Notes: generated by a model not told the origin, from the letters alone. DNA of 64,000 nt from Escherichia coli (GCF_013315695.1 NZ_CP054356.1), one strand, 5' to 3'. Numbered from the stretch's first letter, positions 2,515 through 48,684 are shown. Numbers and translations: made by a program.

Positions 2515-2948
2515 TCAACGTTCTTTAGCTCCTTCCACTAACAGCCGACCTATCTCAAACACCGCAGCTGACCGTCCCGACTTCACCGCTTCGGCTTTCT
2601 GTCCCTCAACAAACCAGTTATTACCGTCCGTTCGGACCAACTCAAACATCCATGACATATCGTAAACGTGTTCCGGGATCAGCGACCCTTCTCCGGCCAG
2701 AATACCCGCCGTTATGGAGTGGTTGCCCCCGTGCACAAAGCCAATACGCCAGGGCAACCACAGGTCAACATAGTGGTTGTTTTTATCTTGCTTCCACGGC
2801 TTCCCCTTATGGGTTCCAATGCGTGAAACGTTATCGATATAGCGTGGTAGGCTCCAAGGCCACGGCAGCACTATGTCGCTTGCCAGCGACAACGGATAAT
2901 CAGCGCCGTTCATCTCACACTCTTTCATCTTTTCGTAAGATTGTATTT
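2515..2948 (-). pseudogene. 3' portion of an unknown gene interrupted by the Tn5403-like insertion (5' portion at 6829-7060)
   Basis: After removing 2949-6828 (element plus one TATTT copy) the minus-strand frame runs continuously from a GTG start at 7060 to the stop at 2515, about 221 aa; hand-translated junction ...KGLTQIQSYEKMKECEMNG.... Confidence 0.55.
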
Positions 2949-2981
2949 GGGCTCCGTTTGGGAAACGGAAAATATTGTACG

Positions 2982-5969
2982 TTAAGGCTGTTTTTTGTAC
3001 TGACTGACATCAACTGCTCGCAAAGGACGATACTTCCCTTCAGCCAGCTTCTTATTGTTTTTCCAGATATAGTCCCCTGTCAGATTAATGTGCTCCCAGC
3101 CCAGCGGAGACAAATGTGACAACAATTGCTCATTAATATGTAGCCCTTTCTTTTTCAGCAGGTTAATGGCGTTTTCTATATATACGGTATTCCACAAAGT
3201 GATTGCGGCAGTGAGCAGCGTAAGCCCACTGGCGCGGTAACTCTGGTTTTCAATACCACGATCCCTTATTTCTCCCAGACGATGCATGAAGACAGCTCTG
3301 GCAAGGGCATTCCGGGCTTCCCCTTTGTTCAGACCTGCCTGAACCCTACGACGAAGCGCCGGATCGCGGAACCAGTCCAGCATGAACAGTGTTCGCTCAA
3401 TACGACCAATTTCTCTTAACGCCTTAGCAAGGCCATTCTGTTTCGGATAACTGGTCAATTTTTTCAGCATCAGAGAAGCGGTCACTGTTCCCTGTTTTAT
3501 TGAGGTCGCCAGTCTCAGAATTTCATTCCAGTGTATTTTTATCTCTTTGATATTCAGGGGGGTTGTGGAGATAATTGACTGTAGAGCAGGATAGTTATCA
3601 GCTTTACCTTGAATAAACAAACGTTTGTCATGCAGATCCCGGATCCTTGGGGCAAAAGCGAATCCCAGCAGATGCATTAGTGCAAAAACATGCTCCGTGA
3701 AACCTGCTGTATCGGTGTAATGTTCCGTTATATCAAGGTCACTTTCGTGATACAGAAGACCATCAAGTACGTGGGTGGAATCACGAACACGACTGATTAC
3801 TTTGGTATAAAACGGACTATATTGATCTGAGATATGCGTATAAAACTGCACCCCAGGTTCCTGACCGTACTTCAAATTAACCTGACCGGCATAGCGCCCA
3901 TGACTGCCAACCCTAAAATTCTGGCCGTCAGAGGATGAGGTGGAACCGTCTCCCCATAATGCCGCCAGCGGTCGTGACTTCTGGGCATTAACCAGTTCTG
4001 CCAGTGCAGCAGAGTACGTTTCATCACGGATGTACCATGCTTGTATGTTTTCCAGCGAAGCTCGTGTGGTTCCCGGACAGGACTCTGCCATTTTTTCCAA
4101 CCCTAGATTGATGCCGTCCGCCAGGATAGTGGTTAGTAGTAAACGATTATCCTGAGGACGGATTAGCGGATTCTTAAGATGAGTAAAATGTCGCGAGAAG
4201 GCAGTCCATCGCTCGACTTCATCAAGTATCTCTGTAATTTTGGGGTGCGGTAGCATGTTGTAAATCAGGTCGGCCAGGGGAGAGACTGTTGAAGGAACGC
4301 TGTTATCCAGTGGGGTGATCTTTACACCTTTATCTGAAATATCCACATCAGGAAGCTCCCCTGCGACAGCCATTGCGTTAACTTCCTCCAGACGGGAGGC
4401 CAGTAGAGTCAGTCTGGCATTAAGATAAGCCCCGCATTCTGTGCCAACAGGTAAATTTAATAGGTTATTATTTAATAACTTTTCGAAATCATCGTTAGGC
4501 ATAAGATAATCATCAAAGTTTTTGTAGCGCCGGGAGCCCCTGACCCAGATATCACCCGCCCGCAGCGCCCCCTTTAGCTCATTCATTGCGCAAATTTCAT
4601 AGTATTGTCGGTCAATGCCTGAGGGGGTGACCACCATCTTTCTCCAGCTCTCAGGAATGAAATCCAGTGGTGCCGATGCAGGAACCTTTCGTAGCTGTTT
4701 ACGGTACATATCACGAATAGTTTCAAGGGCATCATTAAGCGGCAACGCTGCCGAAGTGGCTCTCAGTTGCAGGGCCGATAGAAAACGAAAAGAATATTTG
4801 CGCAATGTACTGAATTTTTCGGTAATAAGATGAAGCGGCTCAAAATTATCCTTACGTGCAAGAAGCTTTGTTTCCTCCAGACTGGCGACAAAATCGTCCC
4901 ACGGTAACACTCGTTCAATAGCAGACAGAGGATCTTCGCCTGCATTGCGTGCATCCAGGATAGCCTGGCCAACAGAAACATACTGACGTAACTTTTGCTG
5001 TATCAACTTGCCCGTTTTCTGAAGACGCTCAGCCTGCTGATGTTTTGCCCGACTGAACATGCTGCCTAGAATACGTTCATGCAGTTCTATAATTTCATCA
5101 ATGATTGTGGCTCTGGCCTCAGTCAGTACACAGACCATCGTTGCGTATCGACGAGCAGGGGAAAAATCAGCCAGATCGCGACTGCTCATTTTGCGGCCCT
5201 CACGCGCGAGTTTCAGCAATCGGTTCTGGTGAACGGTTCTCTCCACTCCTTCCGGCAGCGCCAGAGCTTCAATAGCGTTAAGGCGGTCAATGTGTTGCAG
5301 GACATTCTTTCCATTGATTTTCCCTGGAGGTTGAAGCAGCCACGTCAAACGGGATATTTGTTTTTCATTTGTCACCAACAGGGCATCAAGCGCAGATTTA
5401 TGCGTGATATCAAGGTGCGCATTCAGCGTTGTATACACCGTTTTATCACCCAGTGTCATTGCTTCTGCACAGGTACGTTCCAGAACATCAATGCCTGGAA
5501 TAATAATTCGCTGTTGATGCAGGTACTTTAGTAACTCCTCTGCGATAAGTATGCCTCTGTCCGTTCTGGTAGACAGAGGGAGCAGATGCCGGATACATTC
5601 TTTCTGAAGTGCACCGTTAAAGGCTTTCAGTTCAAGATATCGATAAAGTTCCCTCATATGCTCACGTCTGGTGGTATCACGACCGGAAACGTATTCCTGC
5701 CAAAGTTCTGCTGATAACTTAAGTCGAGCGCCAATGGTTTTTAGCAATTTTGCGGGTGGGGATGATTTTTTATCCGGGGCAAACCCAATACTTTTCAGAT
5801 AACAGAGAAGAACGGCAAAACCAAACCGGCTGGCAGGTTTACGGTGAGCATTGATAATTGCCAGATCCTGCTCACTGAAATACGTCATTCGAGTCAGTGT
5901 TAACTCATCGTCTGGCAATGCCAGTAATGATTCTCTTTCCGATAGAGAAAGAATCTGCCTCCTTGCCAT
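2982..5969 (-). CDS. tnpA: Tn3-family transposase TnpA, 995 aa, intact
   Basis: Uninterrupted 995-aa ORF with Tn3-family transposase length and organisation, distinct in sequence from the Tn2/Tn3 TnpA at 9012-12017. Confidence 0.9.
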   Translation of the reverse strand: MARRQILSLSERESLLALPDDELTLTRMTYFSEQDLAIINAHRKPASRFGFAVLLCYLKSIGFAPDKKSSPPAKLLKTIGARLKLSAELWQEYVSGRDTTRREHMRELYRYLELKAFNGALQKECIRHLLPLSTRTDRGILIAEELLKYLHQQRIIIPGIDVLERTCAEAMTLGDKTVYTTLNAHLDITHKSALDALLVTNEKQISRLTWLLQPPGKINGKNVLQHIDRLNAIEALALPEGVERTVHQNRLLKLAREGRKMSSRDLADFSPARRYATMVCVLTEARATIIDEIIELHERILGSMFSRAKHQQAERLQKTGKLIQQKLRQYVSVGQAILDARNAGEDPLSAIERVLPWDDFVASLEETKLLARKDNFEPLHLITEKFSTLRKYSFRFLSALQLRATSAALPLNDALETIRDMYRKQLRKVPASAPLDFIPESWRKMVVTPSGIDRQYYEICAMNELKGALRAGDIWVRGSRRYKNFDDYLMPNDDFEKLLNNNLLNLPVGTECGAYLNARLTLLASRLEEVNAMAVAGELPDVDISDKGVKITPLDNSVPSTVSPLADLIYNMLPHPKITEILDEVERWTAFSRHFTHLKNPLIRPQDNRLLLTTILADGINLGLEKMAESCPGTTRASLENIQAWYIRDETYSAALAELVNAQKSRPLAALWGDGSTSSSDGQNFRVGSHGRYAGQVNLKYGQEPGVQFYTHISDQYSPFYTKVISRVRDSTHVLDGLLYHESDLDITEHYTDTAGFTEHVFALMHLLGFAFAPRIRDLHDKRLFIQGKADNYPALQSIISTTPLNIKEIKIHWNEILRLATSIKQGTVTASLMLKKLTSYPKQNGLAKALREIGRIERTLFMLDWFRDPALRRRVQAGLNKGEARNALARAVFMHRLGEIRDRGIENQSYRASGLTLLTAAITLWNTVYIENAINLLKKKGLHINEQLLSHLSPLGWEHINLTGDYIWKNNKKLAEGKYRPLRAVDVSQYKKQP

Positions 5970-40888: not shown

Positions 40889-41603
40889 TACGGCAATAAT
40901 ATTCGGCGGCCTGTTTTTTTCCTGCAGCGTGATGGCCGCAAACGGTACGCTGGCCCCCACTGTGGTGCCAATGGTGAACGGTGGTCAGGCCAGTATTGCC
41001 ATCAGCAATACCAGCCCGAATCTGTTTACCGTTCCCGGTGACCGGATTATCGCCGTGAACAGTCTGGATGGTGCCCTGACCAATAATGAGCAGACCGCCT
41101 CCGGCGGTGTGGTGGTGGCCACCGTCAACAAAAAGCCCTTTACGTTCATTCTGGAAACAGAGCGTGGTCTGAACCTTTCCATTCAGGCTGTTCCCCGTGA
41201 AGGCGCGGGGCGTACCATTCAGCTGGTCAGTGACCTGCGCGGAACCGGAGAAGAAGCCGGAGCGTGGGAAACGTCCACGCCTTACGAATCCCTGCTTGTG
41301 ACCATCAGCCAGGCTGTCCGTGGCGGAAAATTACCTGCAGGCTGGTATCAGGTTCCTGTGACAAAGGAAACCCTGCAGGCCCCGGCGGGGCTGTCTTCAG
41401 TGGCAGATTCCGTATGGACGGGGAATCACCTGAAGATGGTCCGCTTTGCCGTGGAAAATAAAACGCTGTCTGCCCTGAATATCCGGGAAAGTGATTTCTG
41501 GCAGCCGGGAACCCGTGCCGTGATGTTCAGCCAGCCTGCCAGCCAGTTACTGGCAGGTGCGCGCATGGATGTGTATGTCATCCGTGACGGGGAGGGCAAC
41601 TGA
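40875..41603 (+). CDS. traK: Secretin-like transfer protein TraK, 242 aa
   Basis: Signal peptide, position and size. Confidence 0.88.
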
Positions 41604-43054
41604 TGGCCAGTATCAATACCATTGTGAAACGCAAGCAGTACCTGTGGCTGGGGATTGTGGTTGTCGGTGCAGCCTCCGCGATTGGTGGGGTACTGTATCT
41701 GTCTGATGTGGACATGTCCGGTAACGGTGAGGCGGTGGCTGAACAGGAGCCTGTGCCGGATATGACAGGTGTGGTGGATACGACCTTTGATGACAAGGTG
41801 CGTCAGCATGCCACCACAGAGATGCAGGTGACGGCAGCGCAGATGCAGAAGCAGTATGAGGAAATCCGTCGTGAACTGGATGTCCTGAACAAACAGCGCG
41901 GTGATGACCAGCGTCGTATTGAAAAGCTGGGACAGGACAATGCCGCCCTGGCAGAGCAGGTAAAAGCCCTGGGTGCTAATCCCGTCACGGCGACCGGTGA
42001 GCCTGTACCTCAGATGCCTGCCTCACCGCCCGGGCCGGAAGGCGAACCACAGCCAGGAAACACCCCCGTATCCTTCCCGCCGCAGGGCAGCGTTGCTGTT
42101 CCACCGCCGACGGCGTTTTATCCCGGGAATGGTGTCACGCCACCACCACAGGTGACGTACCAGTCTGTGCCGGTGCCTAACCGGATACAGCGTAAGGTGT
42201 TTACCCGTAATGAGGGAAAACAGGGACCATCGCTGCCGTACATTCCGTCAGGAAGTTTTGCGAAAGCCATGCTGATTGAAGGGGCGGATGCCAATGCCTC
42301 AGTCACCGGTAATGAATCCACGGTGCCGATGCAGTTGCGTATCACCGGCCTGGTGGAAATGCCGAACAGCAAGACGTATGACGCAACGGGATGTTTTGTG
42401 GGGCTGGAAGCCTGGGGGGATGTGTCCAGTGAACGTGCCATTGTACGCACCCGCAATATCAGTTGCCTGAAGGACGGCAAAACTATTGATATGCCGATTA
42501 AGGGGCATGTCAGCTTCCGGGGTAAAAACGGTATCAAGGGCGAAGTGGTGATGCGTAACGGCAAAATCCTCGGCTGGGCATGGGGCGCGGGATTTGTTGA
42601 CGGTATCGGTCAGGGAATGGAGCGCGCCTCCCAACCGGCTGTCGGGCTGGGTGCCACAGCCGCTTACGGGGCTGGTGATGTCCTGAAAATGGGTATCGGT
42701 GGCGGCGCATCGAAAGCCGCACAGACGCTCAGTGACTACTACATCAAACGTGCCGAACAGTATCACCCGGTGATACCGATTGGTGCGGGCAACGAAGTGA
42801 CCGTGGTGTTCCAGGACGGCTTCCAGCTGAAAACCGTGGAGGAAATGGCGCTGGAGCAGTCACAGAGTACAGCGGAAGAGGGTAACCCGGAAAGCCCGGT
42901 GCCGAATCCTCCCTCGGCAGAAAGCCACCTGAACGGTTTTAACACCGACCAGATGCTGAAACAGCTGGGCAATCTGAATCCGCAGCAGTTTATGTCCGGA
43001 GACAAGAACCCGCTGGGCGGGGATGCCGGCAAGGAGGGCGGAAATGGCGGGTGA
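41603..43054 (+). CDS. traB: Transfer protein TraB (VirB10-like), 483 aa
   Basis: N-terminal TM, Pro-rich linker, C-terminal VirB10-like domain. Confidence 0.9.
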   Translation: MASINTIVKRKQYLWLGIVVVGAASAIGGVLYLSDVDMSGNGEAVAEQEPVPDMTGVVDTTFDDKVRQHATTEMQVTAAQMQKQYEEIRRELDVLNKQRGDDQRRIEKLGQDNAALAEQVKALGANPVTATGEPVPQMPASPPGPEGEPQPGNTPVSFPPQGSVAVPPPTAFYPGNGVTPPPQVTYQSVPVPNRIQRKVFTRNEGKQGPSLPYIPSGSFAKAMLIEGADANASVTGNESTVPMQLRITGLVEMPNSKTYDATGCFVGLEAWGDVSSERAIVRTRNISCLKDGKTIDMPIKGHVSFRGKNGIKGEVVMRNGKILGWAWGAGFVDGIGQGMERASQPAVGLGATAAYGAGDVLKMGIGGGASKAAQTLSDYYIKRAEQYHPVIPIGAGNEVTVVFQDGFQLKTVEEMALEQSQSTAEEGNPESPVPNPPSAESHLNGFNTDQMLKQLGNLNPQQFMSGDKNPLGGDAGKEGGNGG

Positions 43055-43610
43055 TGCACTGACATTCCGTGTGGCGTTTGTCGTTCGCTGGCTGCTGTGG
43101 GTCGTCAGGTTTGTGGTTATCTGGCCGCTGGCCACAATGGCCCTGATGGCTCTGTTTGTTTTATGGAAGGACAACACCACGCCGGGGAAATTACTGGTTA
43201 AGGAGATTAACTTCGTAAGACAAACAGCACCTGCCGGACAGTTCCCGGTCAGTGAATGCTGGTTTTCTTCCTCTGATTCTTCAGGCAGATCAGAAATACA
43301 GGATATCTGCCATTACCGCGCGGCTGATGCTGCAGATTATGTCAGGGAGACTGACCGGTCACTGATGCAACTGGTCACCGCATTCTGGGCAACGCTGGCA
43401 CTGATGTATATGTCGTTTGCGGCAGGCACCGGGAAATATCCGATGTGGCCCGGAAAAATGAAATGTGTCCGGGTGGGAACCGCAGATGAACATCTGAAGG
43501 AAGTTTATACGGAAGACGCTTCCCTGCCGGAAAAAATCAGGAAATGCCCTGTTTATTTCCATGATGACAGAACAAACAGAAGCAACGGAGATAAAAATGA
43601 ACATGCGTAA
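43023..43610 (+). CDS. traP: Transfer protein TraP, 195 aa
   Basis: Position and size in the tra operon. Confidence 0.8.
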   Translation: MPARRAEMAGDALTFRVAFVVRWLLWVVRFVVIWPLATMALMALFVLWKDNTTPGKLLVKEINFVRQTAPAGQFPVSECWFSSSDSSGRSEIQDICHYRAADAADYVRETDRSLMQLVTAFWATLALMYMSFAAGTGKYPMWPGKMKCVRVGTADEHLKEVYTEDASLPEKIRKCPVYFHDDRTNRSNGDKNEHA

Positions 43611-43914
43611 TATTAATGTTATTACTGCCCGCGCTGTGCCGGATAAAAACGTATCAGATGATTTTATGCATGCTGTTCTCAGTAACTGCACCACAAGAAT
43701 CGCACTTCCTGCGCCGAAGAAATTCAGTTCTGAATCATTGCCGCACAATTTTAATATGGCTGCTGTCGGAGTGATGAAGAAGGGTATGTCGATGAGTTTA
43801 TTTTCTTCTCCGGGAAATACAGTAGTCTCCGGACAACCCTGTGCAGGAAAAACAAATCTGACAGTAGAGTTAATTTCTGCTGTTGTGGAGAGTAATAAAA
43901 AAGGAGAAGGGTAA
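43597..43914 (+). CDS. TrbD/TrbG region ORF (start uncertain)
   Basis: Small ORF between traP and traV where F carries trbD and trbG; exact gene boundaries not resolved. Confidence 0.45.
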   Translation: MNMRNINVITARAVPDKNVSDDFMHAVLSNCTTRIALPAPKKFSSESLPHNFNMAAVGVMKKGMSMSLFSSPGNTVVSGQPCAGKTNLTVELISAVVESNKKGEG

Positions 43915-44429
43915 TGAAACAGATTTCTTTATTTATTCCTCTGCTGGGAACCTTATTACTTTCCGGCTGTGCAGGAACGAACTCTGATTTTGAGTGTGAT
44001 GCCACCACGTCAGATACCTGTATGACGATGGAGCAGGCTAATGAGAAGGCCAAAAAACTGGAGCAGTCCTCAGAAGCAAAGCCGGTTGCGGCATCACTGC
44101 CGCGCCTGGCTGAAGGGAACTTCCGGACCACGTCGGTGCAGGCCGTTGCGGCGACAACGCCGTCCCGCAGCAGGCCTGCGGTGACAGCACATCCGGAGCA
44201 GAAACTGCTGGCACCACGCCCGCTGTTTACCGCTGCCCGGGAAGTGAAAACGGTTGTTCCGGTCAGTTCAGTTGCGCCGGTAACACCTCCCCGTCCGCTA
44301 AGAACGGGTGAGCAGACGGCTGCATTATGGATAGCGCCTTATATTGATAATCAGGATGTTTATCATCAGCCATCCAGTGTGTTTTTTGTTATTAAACCGT
44401 CTGCGTGGGGAAAACCACGTATTAATTAA
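43914..44429 (+). CDS. traV: Outer-membrane lipoprotein TraV, 171 aa
   Basis: Lipobox LLSGC at the N-terminus; position and size. Confidence 0.9.
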   Translation: MKQISLFIPLLGTLLLSGCAGTNSDFECDATTSDTCMTMEQANEKAKKLEQSSEAKPVAASLPRLAEGNFRTTSVQAVAATTPSRSRPAVTAHPEQKLLAPRPLFTAAREVKTVVPVSSVAPVTPPRPLRTGEQTAALWIAPYIDNQDVYHQPSSVFFVIKPSAWGKPRIN

Positions 44430-44563
44430 CTGGCCCTGAAGTTGTATATCAGCCGGCAATGCCGGCGGGCTTTCTGTATTCAAAATCTGCCTGTAAAACG
44501 AGTGCCCTGTGCGTGAAAAGGGATGGGCGGTAGCGTGTCAGAACATGTCGGGAGGAATATTCC

Positions 44564-44785
44564 GTGAGTGATGAAGCCGATGAAGCATATTCAGTGACAG
44601 AACAACTGACCATGACAGGAATAAACCGGATACGCCAGAAAATAAATGTTCATGGTATTCCTGTTTATCTCTGTGAAGCATGCGGAAATCCTATTCCGGA
44701 AGCCCGGAGGAAAATATTTCCCGGTGTGACGTTGTGCGTTGAATGTCAGGCGTATCAGGAAAGGCAGAGGAAACACTATGCATAA
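44564..44785 (+). CDS. traR: TraR (DksA/TraR-family C4 zinc finger), 73 aa
   Basis: Motifs CEACGNPIPEARRK...CVEC. Confidence 0.9.
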   Translation: MSDEADEAYSVTEQLTMTGINRIRQKINVHGIPVYLCEACGNPIPEARRKIFPGVTLCVECQAYQERQRKHYA

Positions 44786-44793
44786 ATCAGAAA

Positions 44794-45255
44794 ATGAAAA
44801 AAATAGATTTTATTCTGGATGAGCATGAGCAGATATTCAGAAAACAGGGTTCTTTGTGTATGGCACTGGGTAAGGGCTTTTTAGTTATAGCTATTCTTTG
44901 TGGTGTTGCCACATTCTGTGTTTCTGGCCTGTATCTGAAATCCCTGTGCCTGTCCGTTGCCTGCTGTTGTGGGGTATTCAGTCGTATTTTTAATTATTAC
45001 AGCGTACCGGAGGAATCACGCATGGTACTCAGTCGTCAGGAATTACTCCGGCTTATGCGTCTGACTGAAGACGTACCAGATGTGAGACAGGAACTGCTTA
45101 ACCGTTTGTTGTCCGGTAAAAAACTGACTGGTCGGGATGAACAGGATATCCGGCGTCTCTGGCAGGAGAAAGTGGATGCAATGCAGGAGTCTGCCACCCG
45201 TCAGCGTGAACAGGATACTATTCGGAAGTTTACTGAAGGGAATAAATCCGAATGA
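44794..45255 (+). CDS. Hypothetical membrane protein, about 153 aa (insert between traR and traC); start uncertain
   Basis: Cys-rich hydrophobic segment, then a charged helical C-terminus; AT-rich relative to the flanking tra genes. Confidence 0.4.
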   Translation: MKKIDFILDEHEQIFRKQGSLCMALGKGFLVIAILCGVATFCVSGLYLKSLCLSVACCCGVFSRIFNYYSVPEESRMVLSRQELLRLMRLTEDVPDVRQELLNRLLSGKKLTGRDEQDIRRLWQEKVDAMQESATRQREQDTIRKFTEGNKSE

Positions 45256-45334
45256 GAATCTGCAGTGTTTTATGACCTCATAAGTTAACTGAAGGGATAT
45301 TCAGTGATTAATATACAAGCGGAGATAATAAAGA

Positions 45335-45553
45335 ATGCATACCTTTATTTTTCTTGTGCTGATAAAAAATATTAACGGTGGCGGAAGCTGGAATATTACA
45401 CCCATGCCAAATACGGACGTATGCGTGCAGGTTCTTCGGACAATCGAAGCACATGGCGGCAGGGGCTTTGGAAATACAGGGGAGTGTATTGAAGTTAAAA
45501 CAAATGAACCTTTGAACAGCGTGATGGAAACACTAAATGGTGGTGGGCAATGA
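45335..45553 (+). CDS. Small hypothetical protein, 72 aa (insert between traR and traC)
   Basis: GGAGA RBS about 10 nt upstream; hydrophobic N-terminus. Confidence 0.3.
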   Translation: MHTFIFLVLIKNINGGGSWNITPMPNTDVCVQVLRTIEAHGGRGFGNTGECIEVKTNEPLNSVMETLNGGGQ

Positions 45554-45580
45554 GTGCTTACTGCTTCGAAGGAAAATGAA

Positions 45581-45928
45581 ATGAAGTCGATATATTTAAA
45601 ATCTGTTCTGGCTTTTATATTTGTTGGCGTTATGGCTATGATTGTATGTATTCCTTTTTACATCGTTTACCTTGCGCAACAACCTGCAACACCAGAACAA
45701 CTGACAGAGATTTTACAGGAAACTCCCTGTGCAGCAGAAGCATTTCAGGAGACACTTAATTATCAGTCTGAACCTTTAACACTTGGTAAGGCAAATAAAA
45801 TCGCATCAGAATGCAGAAAAAGAAACGAAATGGCAGAGGTGAAACGTGTAAGAGAAAATGAGCGCAATAAGATTCGCGAAAAACAAATTCAGGCATTAAA
45901 TGATGCTCATTCAGTAAAGGAACGTTAA
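45581..45928 (+). CDS. Hypothetical membrane-anchored protein, about 115 aa (insert between traR and traC)
   Basis: AAGGA RBS; N-terminal TM helix then a charged C-terminal tail. Confidence 0.4.
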   Translation: MKSIYLKSVLAFIFVGVMAMIVCIPFYIVYLAQQPATPEQLTEILQETPCAAEAFQETLNYQSEPLTLGKANKIASECRKRNEMAEVKRVRENERNKIREKQIQALNDAHSVKER

Positions 45929-46053
45929 TCCTGGTTTCCTGTTAAAAGCCTCCATCTCTTATTTGTGCTGTGGTTTCAGGAATGGCACTGCGTGATATAT
46001 CCACGGCCACAGACTGATATTTTCCTTTTTTAAACGCACTAAGGAATACTCAT

Positions 46054-48684
46054 ATGAGTAATAACCCACTTGAGGCCGTCACTCAGGCGGTTAACTCCCT
46101 CGTCACAGCACTGAAACTGCCTGACGAATCCGCAAAGGCCAATGAAGTTCTGGGCGAAATGAGCTTCCCGCAGTTCAGCCGTCTGCTGCCGTACCGTGAT
46201 TACAACCAGGAATCCGGTCTGTTCATGAATGACACCACGATGGGCTTTATGCTGGAAGCCATTCCCATCAATGGGGCGAATAAGTCCATTGTGGAGGCAC
46301 TCGATCACATGCTGCGCACCAAACTGCCGCGCGGTATTCCGTTGTGTATCCATCTGATGTCCAGTCAGCTGGTTGGTGACAGGATTGAATACGGGCTGCG
46401 TGAGTTCTCCTGGTCAGGTGAACAGGCTGAACGGTTTAACGCCATTACCCGTGCCTATTATATGAAAGCGGCAGCGACACAGTTCCCGCTGCCGGAGGGG
46501 ATGAATCTGCCCCTGACCCTGCGCCATTACCGGGTGTTTATCTCGTACTGTTCTCCCTCGAAGAAAAAAAGCCGGGCTGACATTCTGGAAATGGAAAATC
46601 TGGTGAAAATCATCCGTGCCTCTTTTCACGGCGCAAAAATCACCACACAGACAGTGGATGCACAGGCTTTCATCGAGATTGTCGGGGAGATGATTAACCA
46701 TAATCCGGACTCTCTGTACCCGAAAAGACGTCAGCTGGACCCGTATTCTGATCTGAATTATCAGTGTGTGGAGGACAGTTTTGACCTGAATGTCCGGGCT
46801 GATTACCTGACGCTGGGCCTGCGTGAGAACGGCAGGAACAGCACGGCCCGCATCCTGAATTTCCATCTGGCCCGTAACCCGGAAATCGCCTTCCTGTGGA
46901 ACATGGCCGACAACTACAGCAATCTGCTGAACCCGGAAATGTCCATTTCCTGCCCGTTCATCCTGACGCTGACTCTGGTGGTGGAAGACCAGGTGAAAAC
47001 CCACAGCGAAGCCAACCTGAAGTACATGGACCTGGAGAAGAAGTCGAAGACCTCCTATGCCAAATGGTTTCCGTCCGTGGAGAAAGAGGCGAAGGAGTGG
47101 GGGGAACTGCGCCAGCGGCTGGGCTCCGGCCAGTCTTCTGTCGTGTCCTACTTCCTCAACATCACAGCCTTCTGCAAGGACAATAATGAAACGGCACTGG
47201 AAGTGGAGCAGGACATCCTGAACAGCTTCCGTAAAAACGGTTTTGAGCTGATTTCACCGCGCTTTAACCACATGCGCAATTTCCTGACCTGCCTGCCCTT
47301 TATGGCCGGGAAAGGGCTGTTTAAACAGCTGAAAGAGGCCGGTGTGGTTCAGCGCGCAGAGAGCTTTAATGTGGCCAACCTGATGCCGTTAGTGGCGGAT
47401 AACCCCCTGACACCGGCAGGTCTGCTGGCGCCCACCTACCGTAACCAGCTGGCGTTTATCGATATCTTCTTTAAGGGGATGAATAACACCAACTACAACA
47501 TGGCGGTCTGTGGCACCTCCGGGGCCGGTAAAACCGGACTGATACAGCCACTTATCCGCAGCGTGCTGGACTCCGGGGGCTTTGCCGTGGTGTTCGACAT
47601 GGGGGATGGCTACAAGTCCCTGTGTGAGAACATGGGGGGCGTATATCTGGACGGTGAAACCCTGCGTTTTAACCCGTTTGCGAACATCACCGATATCGAC
47701 CAGTCAGCGGAGCGTGTCCGCGACCAGTTGTCGGTGATGGCCAGCCCCAACGGTAACCTGGATGAAGTGCATGAAGGTCTGCTGCTGCAGGCGGTCAAAG
47801 CCTCCTGGCTGGCCAAAAAGAATCAGGCGCGCATTGATGATGTGGTGAATTTCCTGAAAAACGCCAGTGACAGCGAGCAGTATGCCGGGTCACCGACCAT
47901 CCGCAGCCGTCTGGATGAAATGATTGTGCTGCTTGACCAGTACACTGCCAACGGCACTTATGGCCGGTATTTTAACTCTGATGAGCCGTCCCTGCGGGAT
48001 GATGCCAGAATGGTGGTGCTGGAGCTGGGTGGGCTGGAAGACCGTCCGTCCCTGCTTGTTGCGGTGATGTTCTCCCTTATTATCTACATCGAGAACAGGA
48101 TGTACCGCACGCCGCGTACTCTCAAGAAACTGAACGTCATTGATGAAGGCTGGCGTCTGCTGGACTTCAAAAATCGTAAAGTCGGTGAGTTTATTCAAAA
48201 AGGTTACCGCACCTGTCGCCGCCATACCGGTGCCTATATCACCATCACACAGAACATCGTCGACTTTGACTCTGACAAGGCCTCCAGTGCGGCCCGTGCG
48301 GCATGGGGTAACTCCTCCTACAAAATTATCCTCAAACAGAGTGCGAAGGAGTTCGCGAAATATAACCAGTTATTCCCGGATCAGTTCCAGCCACTGCAGC
48401 GCGACATGATTGGCAAGTTTGGTGCGGCCAAAGACCAGTGGTTCAGTTCCTTCCTGCTGCAGGTGGAAAACCATTCCTCCTGGCACCGTCTGTTTGTGGA
48501 CCCGTTAAGCCGCGCCATGTACAGCTCTGACGGCCCGGATTTTGAGTTTGTGCAGCAGAAACGCAGGGAGGGCCTGAGTATTCATGAGGCGGTGTGGCAG
48601 CTGGCGTGGAAGAAGTCAGGGCCGGAGATGGCTTCGCTGGAAGCCTGGCTGGAAGAACATGAGAAATACAGGAGTGTTGCATGA
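46054..48684 (+). CDS. traC: Type IV secretion ATPase TraC (VirB4-like), 876 aa
   Basis: Walker A GTSGAGKT; size and position. Confidence 0.95.
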   Translation: MSNNPLEAVTQAVNSLVTALKLPDESAKANEVLGEMSFPQFSRLLPYRDYNQESGLFMNDTTMGFMLEAIPINGANKSIVEALDHMLRTKLPRGIPLCIHLMSSQLVGDRIEYGLREFSWSGEQAERFNAITRAYYMKAAATQFPLPEGMNLPLTLRHYRVFISYCSPSKKKSRADILEMENLVKIIRASFHGAKITTQTVDAQAFIEIVGEMINHNPDSLYPKRRQLDPYSDLNYQCVEDSFDLNVRADYLTLGLRENGRNSTARILNFHLARNPEIAFLWNMADNYSNLLNPEMSISCPFILTLTLVVEDQVKTHSEANLKYMDLEKKSKTSYAKWFPSVEKEAKEWGELRQRLGSGQSSVVSYFLNITAFCKDNNETALEVEQDILNSFRKNGFELISPRFNHMRNFLTCLPFMAGKGLFKQLKEAGVVQRAESFNVANLMPLVADNPLTPAGLLAPTYRNQLAFIDIFFKGMNNTNYNMAVCGTSGAGKTGLIQPLIRSVLDSGGFAVVFDMGDGYKSLCENMGGVYLDGETLRFNPFANITDIDQSAERVRDQLSVMASPNGNLDEVHEGLLLQAVKASWLAKKNQARIDDVVNFLKNASDSEQYAGSPTIRSRLDEMIVLLDQYTANGTYGRYFNSDEPSLRDDARMVVLELGGLEDRPSLLVAVMFSLIIYIENRMYRTPRTLKKLNVIDEGWRLLDFKNRKVGEFIQKGYRTCRRHTGAYITITQNIVDFDSDKASSAARAAWGNSSYKIILKQSAKEFAKYNQLFPDQFQPLQRDMIGKFGAAKDQWFSSFLLQVENHSSWHRLFVDPLSRAMYSSDGPDFEFVQQKRREGLSIHEAVWQLAWKKSGPEMASLEAWLEEHEKYRSVA

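Follow-up and report, generated by a model that had tools for sequence, protein, structure and literature searches.

Three open reading frames (ORFs) of 153, 72 and 115 aa lie on the + strand between traR and traC at positions 44794-45928 of the window, the stretch of 64,000 nucleotides of Escherichia coli DNA that was analyzed as a whole. Their location and sizes are those that a preliminary description of this DNA had given. The surrounding genes belong to an F-like transfer operon: traB occupies 41603-43054, and traP, trbD and traV (43914-44429) precede traR. Within 43561-44429, trbD (117 aa, DUF2689) directly adjoins traV, trbG being missing here as it is in R100; trbG is present in F and in several IncFII plasmids (loci L006, L007, and L010), so the trbD-traV site varies too. 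Just after traV, a GC-rich hairpin (GCCGGCAATGCCGGC, 44452-44467) is followed by a T-rich stretch, and folding of this region is not better than that of shuffled sequences (z -0.49). The gene traR (44564-44785, + strand) encodes a 73-aa protein with a DksA/TraR zinc finger (Pfam PF01258 zf-dskA_traR, E 1.7e-13) and is also annotated in plasmids identical to the window.

The genes that follow traR are called yfiA, yfiB and yfiC here; yfiA is found as a name in annotation and "YfiC protein" in UniRef. The body of yfiA (44794-45255, + strand) encodes 153 aa from an internal ATG at 44794, compared with 158 aa in the allele described below, and its frame extends upstream without a stop as far as an ATG at 44743, within traR (170 aa). 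The second gene, yfiB (45335-45553, + strand, 72 aa), is preceded by the Shine-Dalgarno motif GGAG at 45321-45324, and its product is identical to that of R100 and pC15-1a (WP_000556745). The third, yfiC (45581-45928, + strand), encodes 115 aa from the ATG at 45581, or 124 aa if begun at the GTG at 45554; it is preceded by AGGA at 45570-45573, and its product is identical to that of R100 (WP_000836682). A spacer (45929-46053, + strand), of which only the last ~10 bases in the region of the traC ribosome-binding site are common to F, leads to the downstream neighbor traC (46054-48684, + strand), which encodes a VirB4-type ATPase of 876 aa. Each yfi ORF has hundreds to thousands of homologues; together with an overall dN/dS below 1 and the Shine-Dalgarno motifs of yfiB and yfiC, this confirms, as far as sequence criteria reach, that the ORFs are more than chance.

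The interval is AT-rich, with a GC content of 0.413 in 44786-46053 against 0.498 for the whole window and 0.54 for traC. The lower GC that had been attributed to the ORFs holds relative to traB, traC and the window mean, but traR (0.446) and trbD (0.410) are similarly low, and AT-richness is not peculiar to the yfi ORFs. A scan of the interval for promoters and terminators gave hits at or below chance, with no excess, and all three ORFs share the strand of the operon, in keeping with their earlier placement inside the long tra transcript. An Rfam search of the interval gave no match, folding of the yfiC-traC spacer was no better than that of shuffles, and the window holds no second copy of the YfiA family.

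The start of yfiA departs from that of its relatives. The native ATG (44778-44780) overlaps the traR stop codon in ATGCATAA, downstream of a Shine-Dalgarno motif GAGG at 44767-44770, and the same overlap occurs in pSLT, R100 and F. In the window, the frame opened by this ATG (44778-44822, + strand) runs for only 14 codons, MHKSENEKNRFYSG, before a stop, owing to an extra A. The extra base lies in a run of seven adenines (A7, 44797-44803, + strand) that is A6 in all seven comparators; the alignment of the start region included pC15-1a, R100, pSLT, F and two further plasmids. This +1 change shifts the first 7 codons of yfiA out of frame with the gene body. Over 59 aligned bases, the A7 sequence is matched exactly by 23 of 1,087 plasmids, a minority allele of ~2%, and 989 differ at one position. 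Plasmids identical to the window have only two hypothetical CDS annotated in the interval, which fits an annotation pipeline calling their yfiA a pseudogene, and the internal ATG of the 153-aa ORF has no Shine-Dalgarno motif. The yfiA of the window thus reads as a frameshift allele of the family member, and A7 could be either a genuine variant of low frequency or a sequencing error in the homopolymer. The 153-aa ORF listed earlier is the remainder of a 158-aa gene, and the frameshift at its start had been overlooked.

A megablast search with 44500-46100 gave 100% matches in many E. coli plasmids of ~70 kb and a 99.6% match in pC15-1a (IncFII). At least 80% of this query is held by 1,166 PLSDB plasmids, and the block is present in about 1,100. 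YfiB and YfiC match their R100 counterparts at 100% identity, and YfiA shares 97.6-98.7% identity with YfiA of pC15-1a and with the first copy in R100. The name YfhA has been given to the ORF that immediately follows traR in R100 and pEntH10407, a similar ORF being absent from F (PMC2762410). With this naming and the two tandem yfiA relatives, the R100 order becomes traR, yfhA, yfiA, yfiB, yfiC, traC. The blocks of R100 and pC15-1a have the same position between traR and traC and the same strand as that of the window, and are likewise annotated as hypothetical. The window therefore has the near-identical proteins and the traR-traC position on the tra strand that mark the block, but departs from it in yfiA, where an in-frame start on the traR stop and a product of 157-158 aa are lost; it also differs from R100 in carrying a single copy, with the A7 frameshift, in place of two tandem yfiA-type genes. 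The reading favored here, with a probability of roughly 0.6, takes the segment as the accessory block yfiA-yfiB-yfiC that is native to F-like transfer operons of the R100/IncFII type, encoding dispensable modulators that act in the donor. The block is already known and annotated, so far without a function, and there is no sign of a new kind of system. A search of the accessible literature on yfiA, yfiB, yfiC, the protein accessions and the traR-traC interval found no functional study, the remark on YfhA being the one relevant mention, which agrees with the earlier remark that the proteins are uncharacterized.

In F, traC follows traR closely, as had been stated, with a spacer of 159 bp. Homology to the window runs through the traR stop and ~110 bp into yfiA, and is found again in the last ~10 bases before traC. 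The remnant opens with ATGCATAA and translates to MHKSVAEHSDLIPDEHEWIFRKQ, which matches the N-terminus of the YfiA family, before going out of frame. Because a frameshifted piece of yfiA is kept in the spacer, F is a deletion derivative that has lost ~1.1 kb. The F-type junction is common: a 261-bp probe spanning it is matched over no less than 80% of its length in 2,229 plasmids, mostly typed as conjugative, and 1,864 of these reach 99% identity or better. Almost the whole interval has been deleted in F and in about two thirds of F-like plasmids. The expectation that F-like plasmids vary at this site is borne out by comparing the traR-traC interval across plasmids, in which both presence/absence differences and rearrangements are seen.

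The smaller rearrangements show an interval that is eroding piecemeal in different lineages. A gene for a multi-pass membrane protein of 103-107 aa lies between yfiB and yfiC in CP122453, CP148534 and Klebsiella IncFIIK plasmids (2664-2975 in L006, 2116-2439 in L007 and 2770-3081 in the Klebsiella locus L008, where its start overlaps the yfiB stop). The window has lost the 103-aa gene and lacks exactly the 373-bp piece that carries it; the junction lies at 45551-45572 (+ strand), with blastn breaks at 45550|45573 against 2663|3037 of L006. Neither the extra membrane gene nor the other small ORFs of Klebsiella and pSLT at this site have a Pfam match. Elsewhere, yfiC carries an internal deletion of 131 bp in two plasmids (L012 and L013), and yfiB is frameshifted in one (L006). 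In R100-type plasmids such as R100 itself (2699-3578 of L005), the first of the tandem yfiA genes is cut short and closes with QRKHYA, which is how TraR ends; this indicates that the duplicated unit included the 3′ end of traR. The duplication would therefore have arisen when yfiA, at about codon 128, crossed over with the 3′ end of traR. The second copy retains the ATGCATAA overlap and represents a different allele. The traV-traC interval of Klebsiella IncFIIK plasmids holds six or seven small ORFs. The first ORF after traV was considered as a YfiA relative and rejected (hhalign probability 1.4%). Two others, of 94 and 134 aa (2245-2529 and 3148-3552 of L008), share a cysteine-containing motif, HW..DC..LE.N...G.F.SP.N.L.C, and look like paralogues by eye.

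Selection differs among the three genes. For yfiB, dN/dS is 0.07-0.28, similar to traV, traC and traR, and YfiB of E. coli and Klebsiella is 72% identical, compared with 52% for TraV and 60% for the N-terminus of TraC. Homologues of yfiB occur in 3,599 plasmids. No other gene of the interval is as well conserved, and yfiB is under clear purifying selection that equals in strength the selection on core transfer genes. Values are higher for yfiC (0.23-0.68). The whole-gene range for yfiA (0.23-0.81) hides a mosaic: between allele classes, the membrane hairpin (residues 20-72) has a dN/dS of about 1.2 at a dS of about 0.6, and the C-terminal part a dN/dS of 0.26-0.49 at a dS of about 0.1. The hairpin resembles an anchor that is exchanged or drifts freely, set between conserved cytoplasmic parts homogenized by recombination. 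Its alleles show no obvious pattern with the presence of trbG in the few loci compared. Low GC, frequent loss, a dN/dS on the high side for yfiC and the frameshift in the yfiA of the window fit weak or conditional selection.

These observations also bear on the idea that the ORFs are decaying and non-functional, the leftovers of an older and larger accessory block that is being lost by drift. Repeated independent losses are what such decay would leave (the F-type deletion in 2,229 plasmids, the 103-aa gene missing here, the 131-bp deletion in yfiC of L012 and L013), as are the frameshifts in yfiB of L006 and at the start of yfiA in the window and a yfiC dN/dS reaching 0.68. However, the low dN/dS of yfiB over saturated dS and its 72% identity between E. 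coli and Klebsiella cannot be drift, conservation of the cytoplasmic parts of YfiA extends to relatives of ~30% identity, and intact copies exist in thousands of plasmids. As an account of the whole block, decay is unlikely. Confined to the yfiA of the window, and not extended to the family, it has somewhat less than an even chance of being right.

The predicted products correspond only in part to the three membrane or secreted proteins with hydrophobic N-termini that had been described. The model of YfiA (AF2 pLDDT 79) shows a long N-terminal helix, predicted to be cytoplasmic, running into membrane helix 1, then helix 2 and a three-helix domain. The membrane hairpin, at about residues 22-68, follows a hydrophilic N-terminus and would expose a loop of only a few residues in the periplasm; the cytoplasmic helical domain contains the conserved motif RLLSGKKLTGRDE. 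YfiB is modeled (AF2 pLDDT 80) as a beta-beta-alpha-beta-alpha fold with two conserved cysteines (C30 and C51). Its hydrophobic start spans ~8 residues and is modeled as a core beta-strand (pLDDT 89), and the protein is probably small, soluble and cytoplasmic, of the alpha/beta class and not a membrane protein. By hydropathy, YfiC has a membrane helix at about residues 8-31, with two lysines before it and an acidic stretch after it, and the alignment reveals invariant C50 and C78, a motif QQPATPEQL..TPCAAEAF and a basic helical tail. This suggests a single-pass protein with its N-terminus in the cytoplasm and a disulfide-bearing domain in the periplasm. A membrane location thus agrees with hydropathy and models for YfiA and YfiC but probably not for YfiB, and a hydrophobic N-terminus is found in YfiC, the hairpin of YfiA coming after a hydrophilic start and the short hydrophobic start of YfiB being modeled as a core strand.

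Searches for function were uninformative. The three proteins had no significant match in Pfam or NCBIfam, none among the 5,027 defense models of PADLOC (best E 0.012) and none in PHROGs (best E 0.011), and sequence-profile searches of the PDB and fold searches gave no informative match. The roles previously proposed, exclusion, immunity, phage-receptor masking or pilus modification, find no support in these family databases or in the fold searches.

Such roles were tied to the picture of the segment as an insert carrying cargo, in which foreign, moron-like genes ride on the tra transcript and confer exclusion, immunity or resistance to pilus-specific phages. A GC content below that of traB and traC and presence/absence variation among F-like plasmids are consistent with this picture, and the high variability of the YfiA hairpin, with a dN/dS of about 1.2, is of a kind known from specificity determinants as well. 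The position and divergence of the genes argue against it. In pSLT, yfiA occupies the same position with the same start/stop overlap. In Klebsiella IncFIIK plasmids, where traR is missing, yfiB (~72% identical) and a relative of yfiC (~46% identical) are found between traV and traC. Against pSLT, dS is 0.97 for yfiA, compared with 0.74 for traR, 1.03 for traV and 0.92 for traC; against Klebsiella, it is 0.9-1.8 for yfiB, compared with 1.96 for traV and 1.35 for traC. The similarity of yfi and flanking tra values points to co-divergence with the operon, across distant F-like lineages. Mobility left no mark either: 44400-46200 contains no inverted repeats and only short direct repeats at chance level, the ORFs of the interval include no transposase, integrase or other mobility gene, and the "empty" site of F is not empty, since it keeps ~110 bp of yfiA. 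The remnant in F makes absence secondary, so the direction implied by the word insert is wrong and it is F that deleted the block. The equal AT-richness of traR and trbD, the missing match to defense models or PHROGs, and a periplasmic loop of YfiA that offers little for a donor or phage to recognize speak further against foreign cargo, which is rather improbable. Taken together, the remnant, the same-position homologues, the matching dS and the missing signs of mobility indicate that the block has long belonged to the operon and is no cargo. By these comparisons, the yfi genes are old residents of the traV/traR-traC interval that co-diverged with the flanking tra genes.

The wider family of YfiA is small: searching 1.84 billion representative proteins with a profile gave only 94 matches. 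Distant relatives keep the architecture and a motif of the RLLSGKxLTGRDE type. In divergent F-type operons, relatives again follow traR, with start/stop overlaps of 8 nt and 14 nt. In IncX-like operons, a YfiA relative comes after the NusG-like actX and before pilX1, with VirB3 and VirB4 further downstream. The loci L018 (5179-7446) and L022 (1894-3914) have the order actX, a small ORF (74 and 88 aa, respectively), the YfiA relative and pilX1, a lytic transglycosylase. The small ORFs have no family match; the 74-aa ORF of L018 was considered as TraR-like and rejected, having no cysteine, and by eye resembles a ribbon-helix-helix protein. PixR of IncX4 plasmids was also considered as a relative and rejected as unrelated. 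In IncI/IncK and ColIa-type plasmids, a YfiA paralogue adjoins a gene of the ProQ/FinO family, and one context is near HicAB. In L028 (3325-4477) and L029 (3325-4492), the paralogue is 164-169 aa long and 34-39% identical, starts 55 bp after the ProQ/FinO-family gene and is found near yagA and colicin Ia, or near repA. The YfiA family is thus a backbone gene of enterobacterial conjugative plasmids, often in the transfer operon and often beside a regulator. Some relatives lie outside transfer operons, and a role in the transfer apparatus is therefore not required.

A further proposal is that YfiA is a membrane tether that holds or releases TraR and so links assembly of the apparatus to the action of TraR on RNA polymerase, yfiB and yfiC being separate accessory genes. 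The overlap of the yfiA start with the traR stop in the window, R100, pSLT, the F remnant and two divergent operons would suit such a link, as would the R100 duplication carrying the traR 3′ end with the second copy, the cytoplasmic location of the conserved YfiA parts, and the retention of yfiB and yfiC in Klebsiella IncFIIK plasmids, from which traR and yfiA are both missing; but about 2,200 plasmids have traR without yfiA, the relatives on IncX-like and IncI/IncK plasmids have no adjacent TraR, and the overlap may reflect only the compact structure of the operon, so that the tether is very doubtful. The broader conjecture that YfiB is a cytoplasmic component or regulator of transfer, that YfiA is a tether controlling a regulator such as TraR, and that natural F-like operons have working parts overlooked because F, the laboratory model, deleted the block, is a long shot.

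For the native accessory block, as favored here, the following mode of action is proposed. The yfi genes would be transcribed within the long tra transcript, translation of native yfiA may be coupled to that of traR through the overlapping ATGCATAA, and yfiB and yfiC would be translated from their own Shine-Dalgarno sites. YfiA would be anchored in the inner membrane by its hairpin, with two conserved parts exposed to the cytoplasm, YfiC would be a single-pass protein with a disulfide-bearing periplasmic domain, and YfiB would be a cytoplasmic alpha/beta protein. These proteins may act in the donor, tuning either the assembly of the transfer apparatus or the handling of tra expression by the cell, and would provide neither a core step of transfer nor a foreign trait. 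That the genes are dispensable for transfer follows from the conjugative nature of F and the other plasmids that lack them.

CTX-M and other resistance genes are carried to a large extent by plasmids of the IncFII/R100 type, yet the model of transfer was built on F, which lacks the yfi genes. The yfi genes offer a short list of candidate modulators of transfer, or of plasmid cost, in clinically relevant plasmids. To the existing picture, the analysis adds that F is a deletion derivative at this site, that selection on yfiB resembles that on core genes and that the YfiA family occurs on several kinds of conjugative plasmids.

Comparable genes are known from F itself, in which trbD, trbG, trbI, traP and traR are dispensable for laboratory transfer. 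Like the yfi genes, these are short, often encode membrane proteins, lie in the pilus-assembly part of the operon, are AT-richer than the core genes and are variably present. In contrast, no sequence or fold relationship to them was found, and the yfi genes have no reported mutant phenotype. The YfiA paralogues of IncI/IncK, ColIa-type and IncX-like plasmids share with YfiA the architecture, the motif and the setting on conjugative plasmids of Enterobacteriaceae, but are only 26-39% identical and do not follow traR. TraS, the entry-exclusion protein of F-like plasmids, resembles YfiA in size, inner-membrane location and strong allelic divergence. However, TraS lies between traG and traT and no homology was detected, and YfiA differs from it in having conserved cytoplasmic ends, variation restricted to the hairpin and a minimal periplasmic loop.
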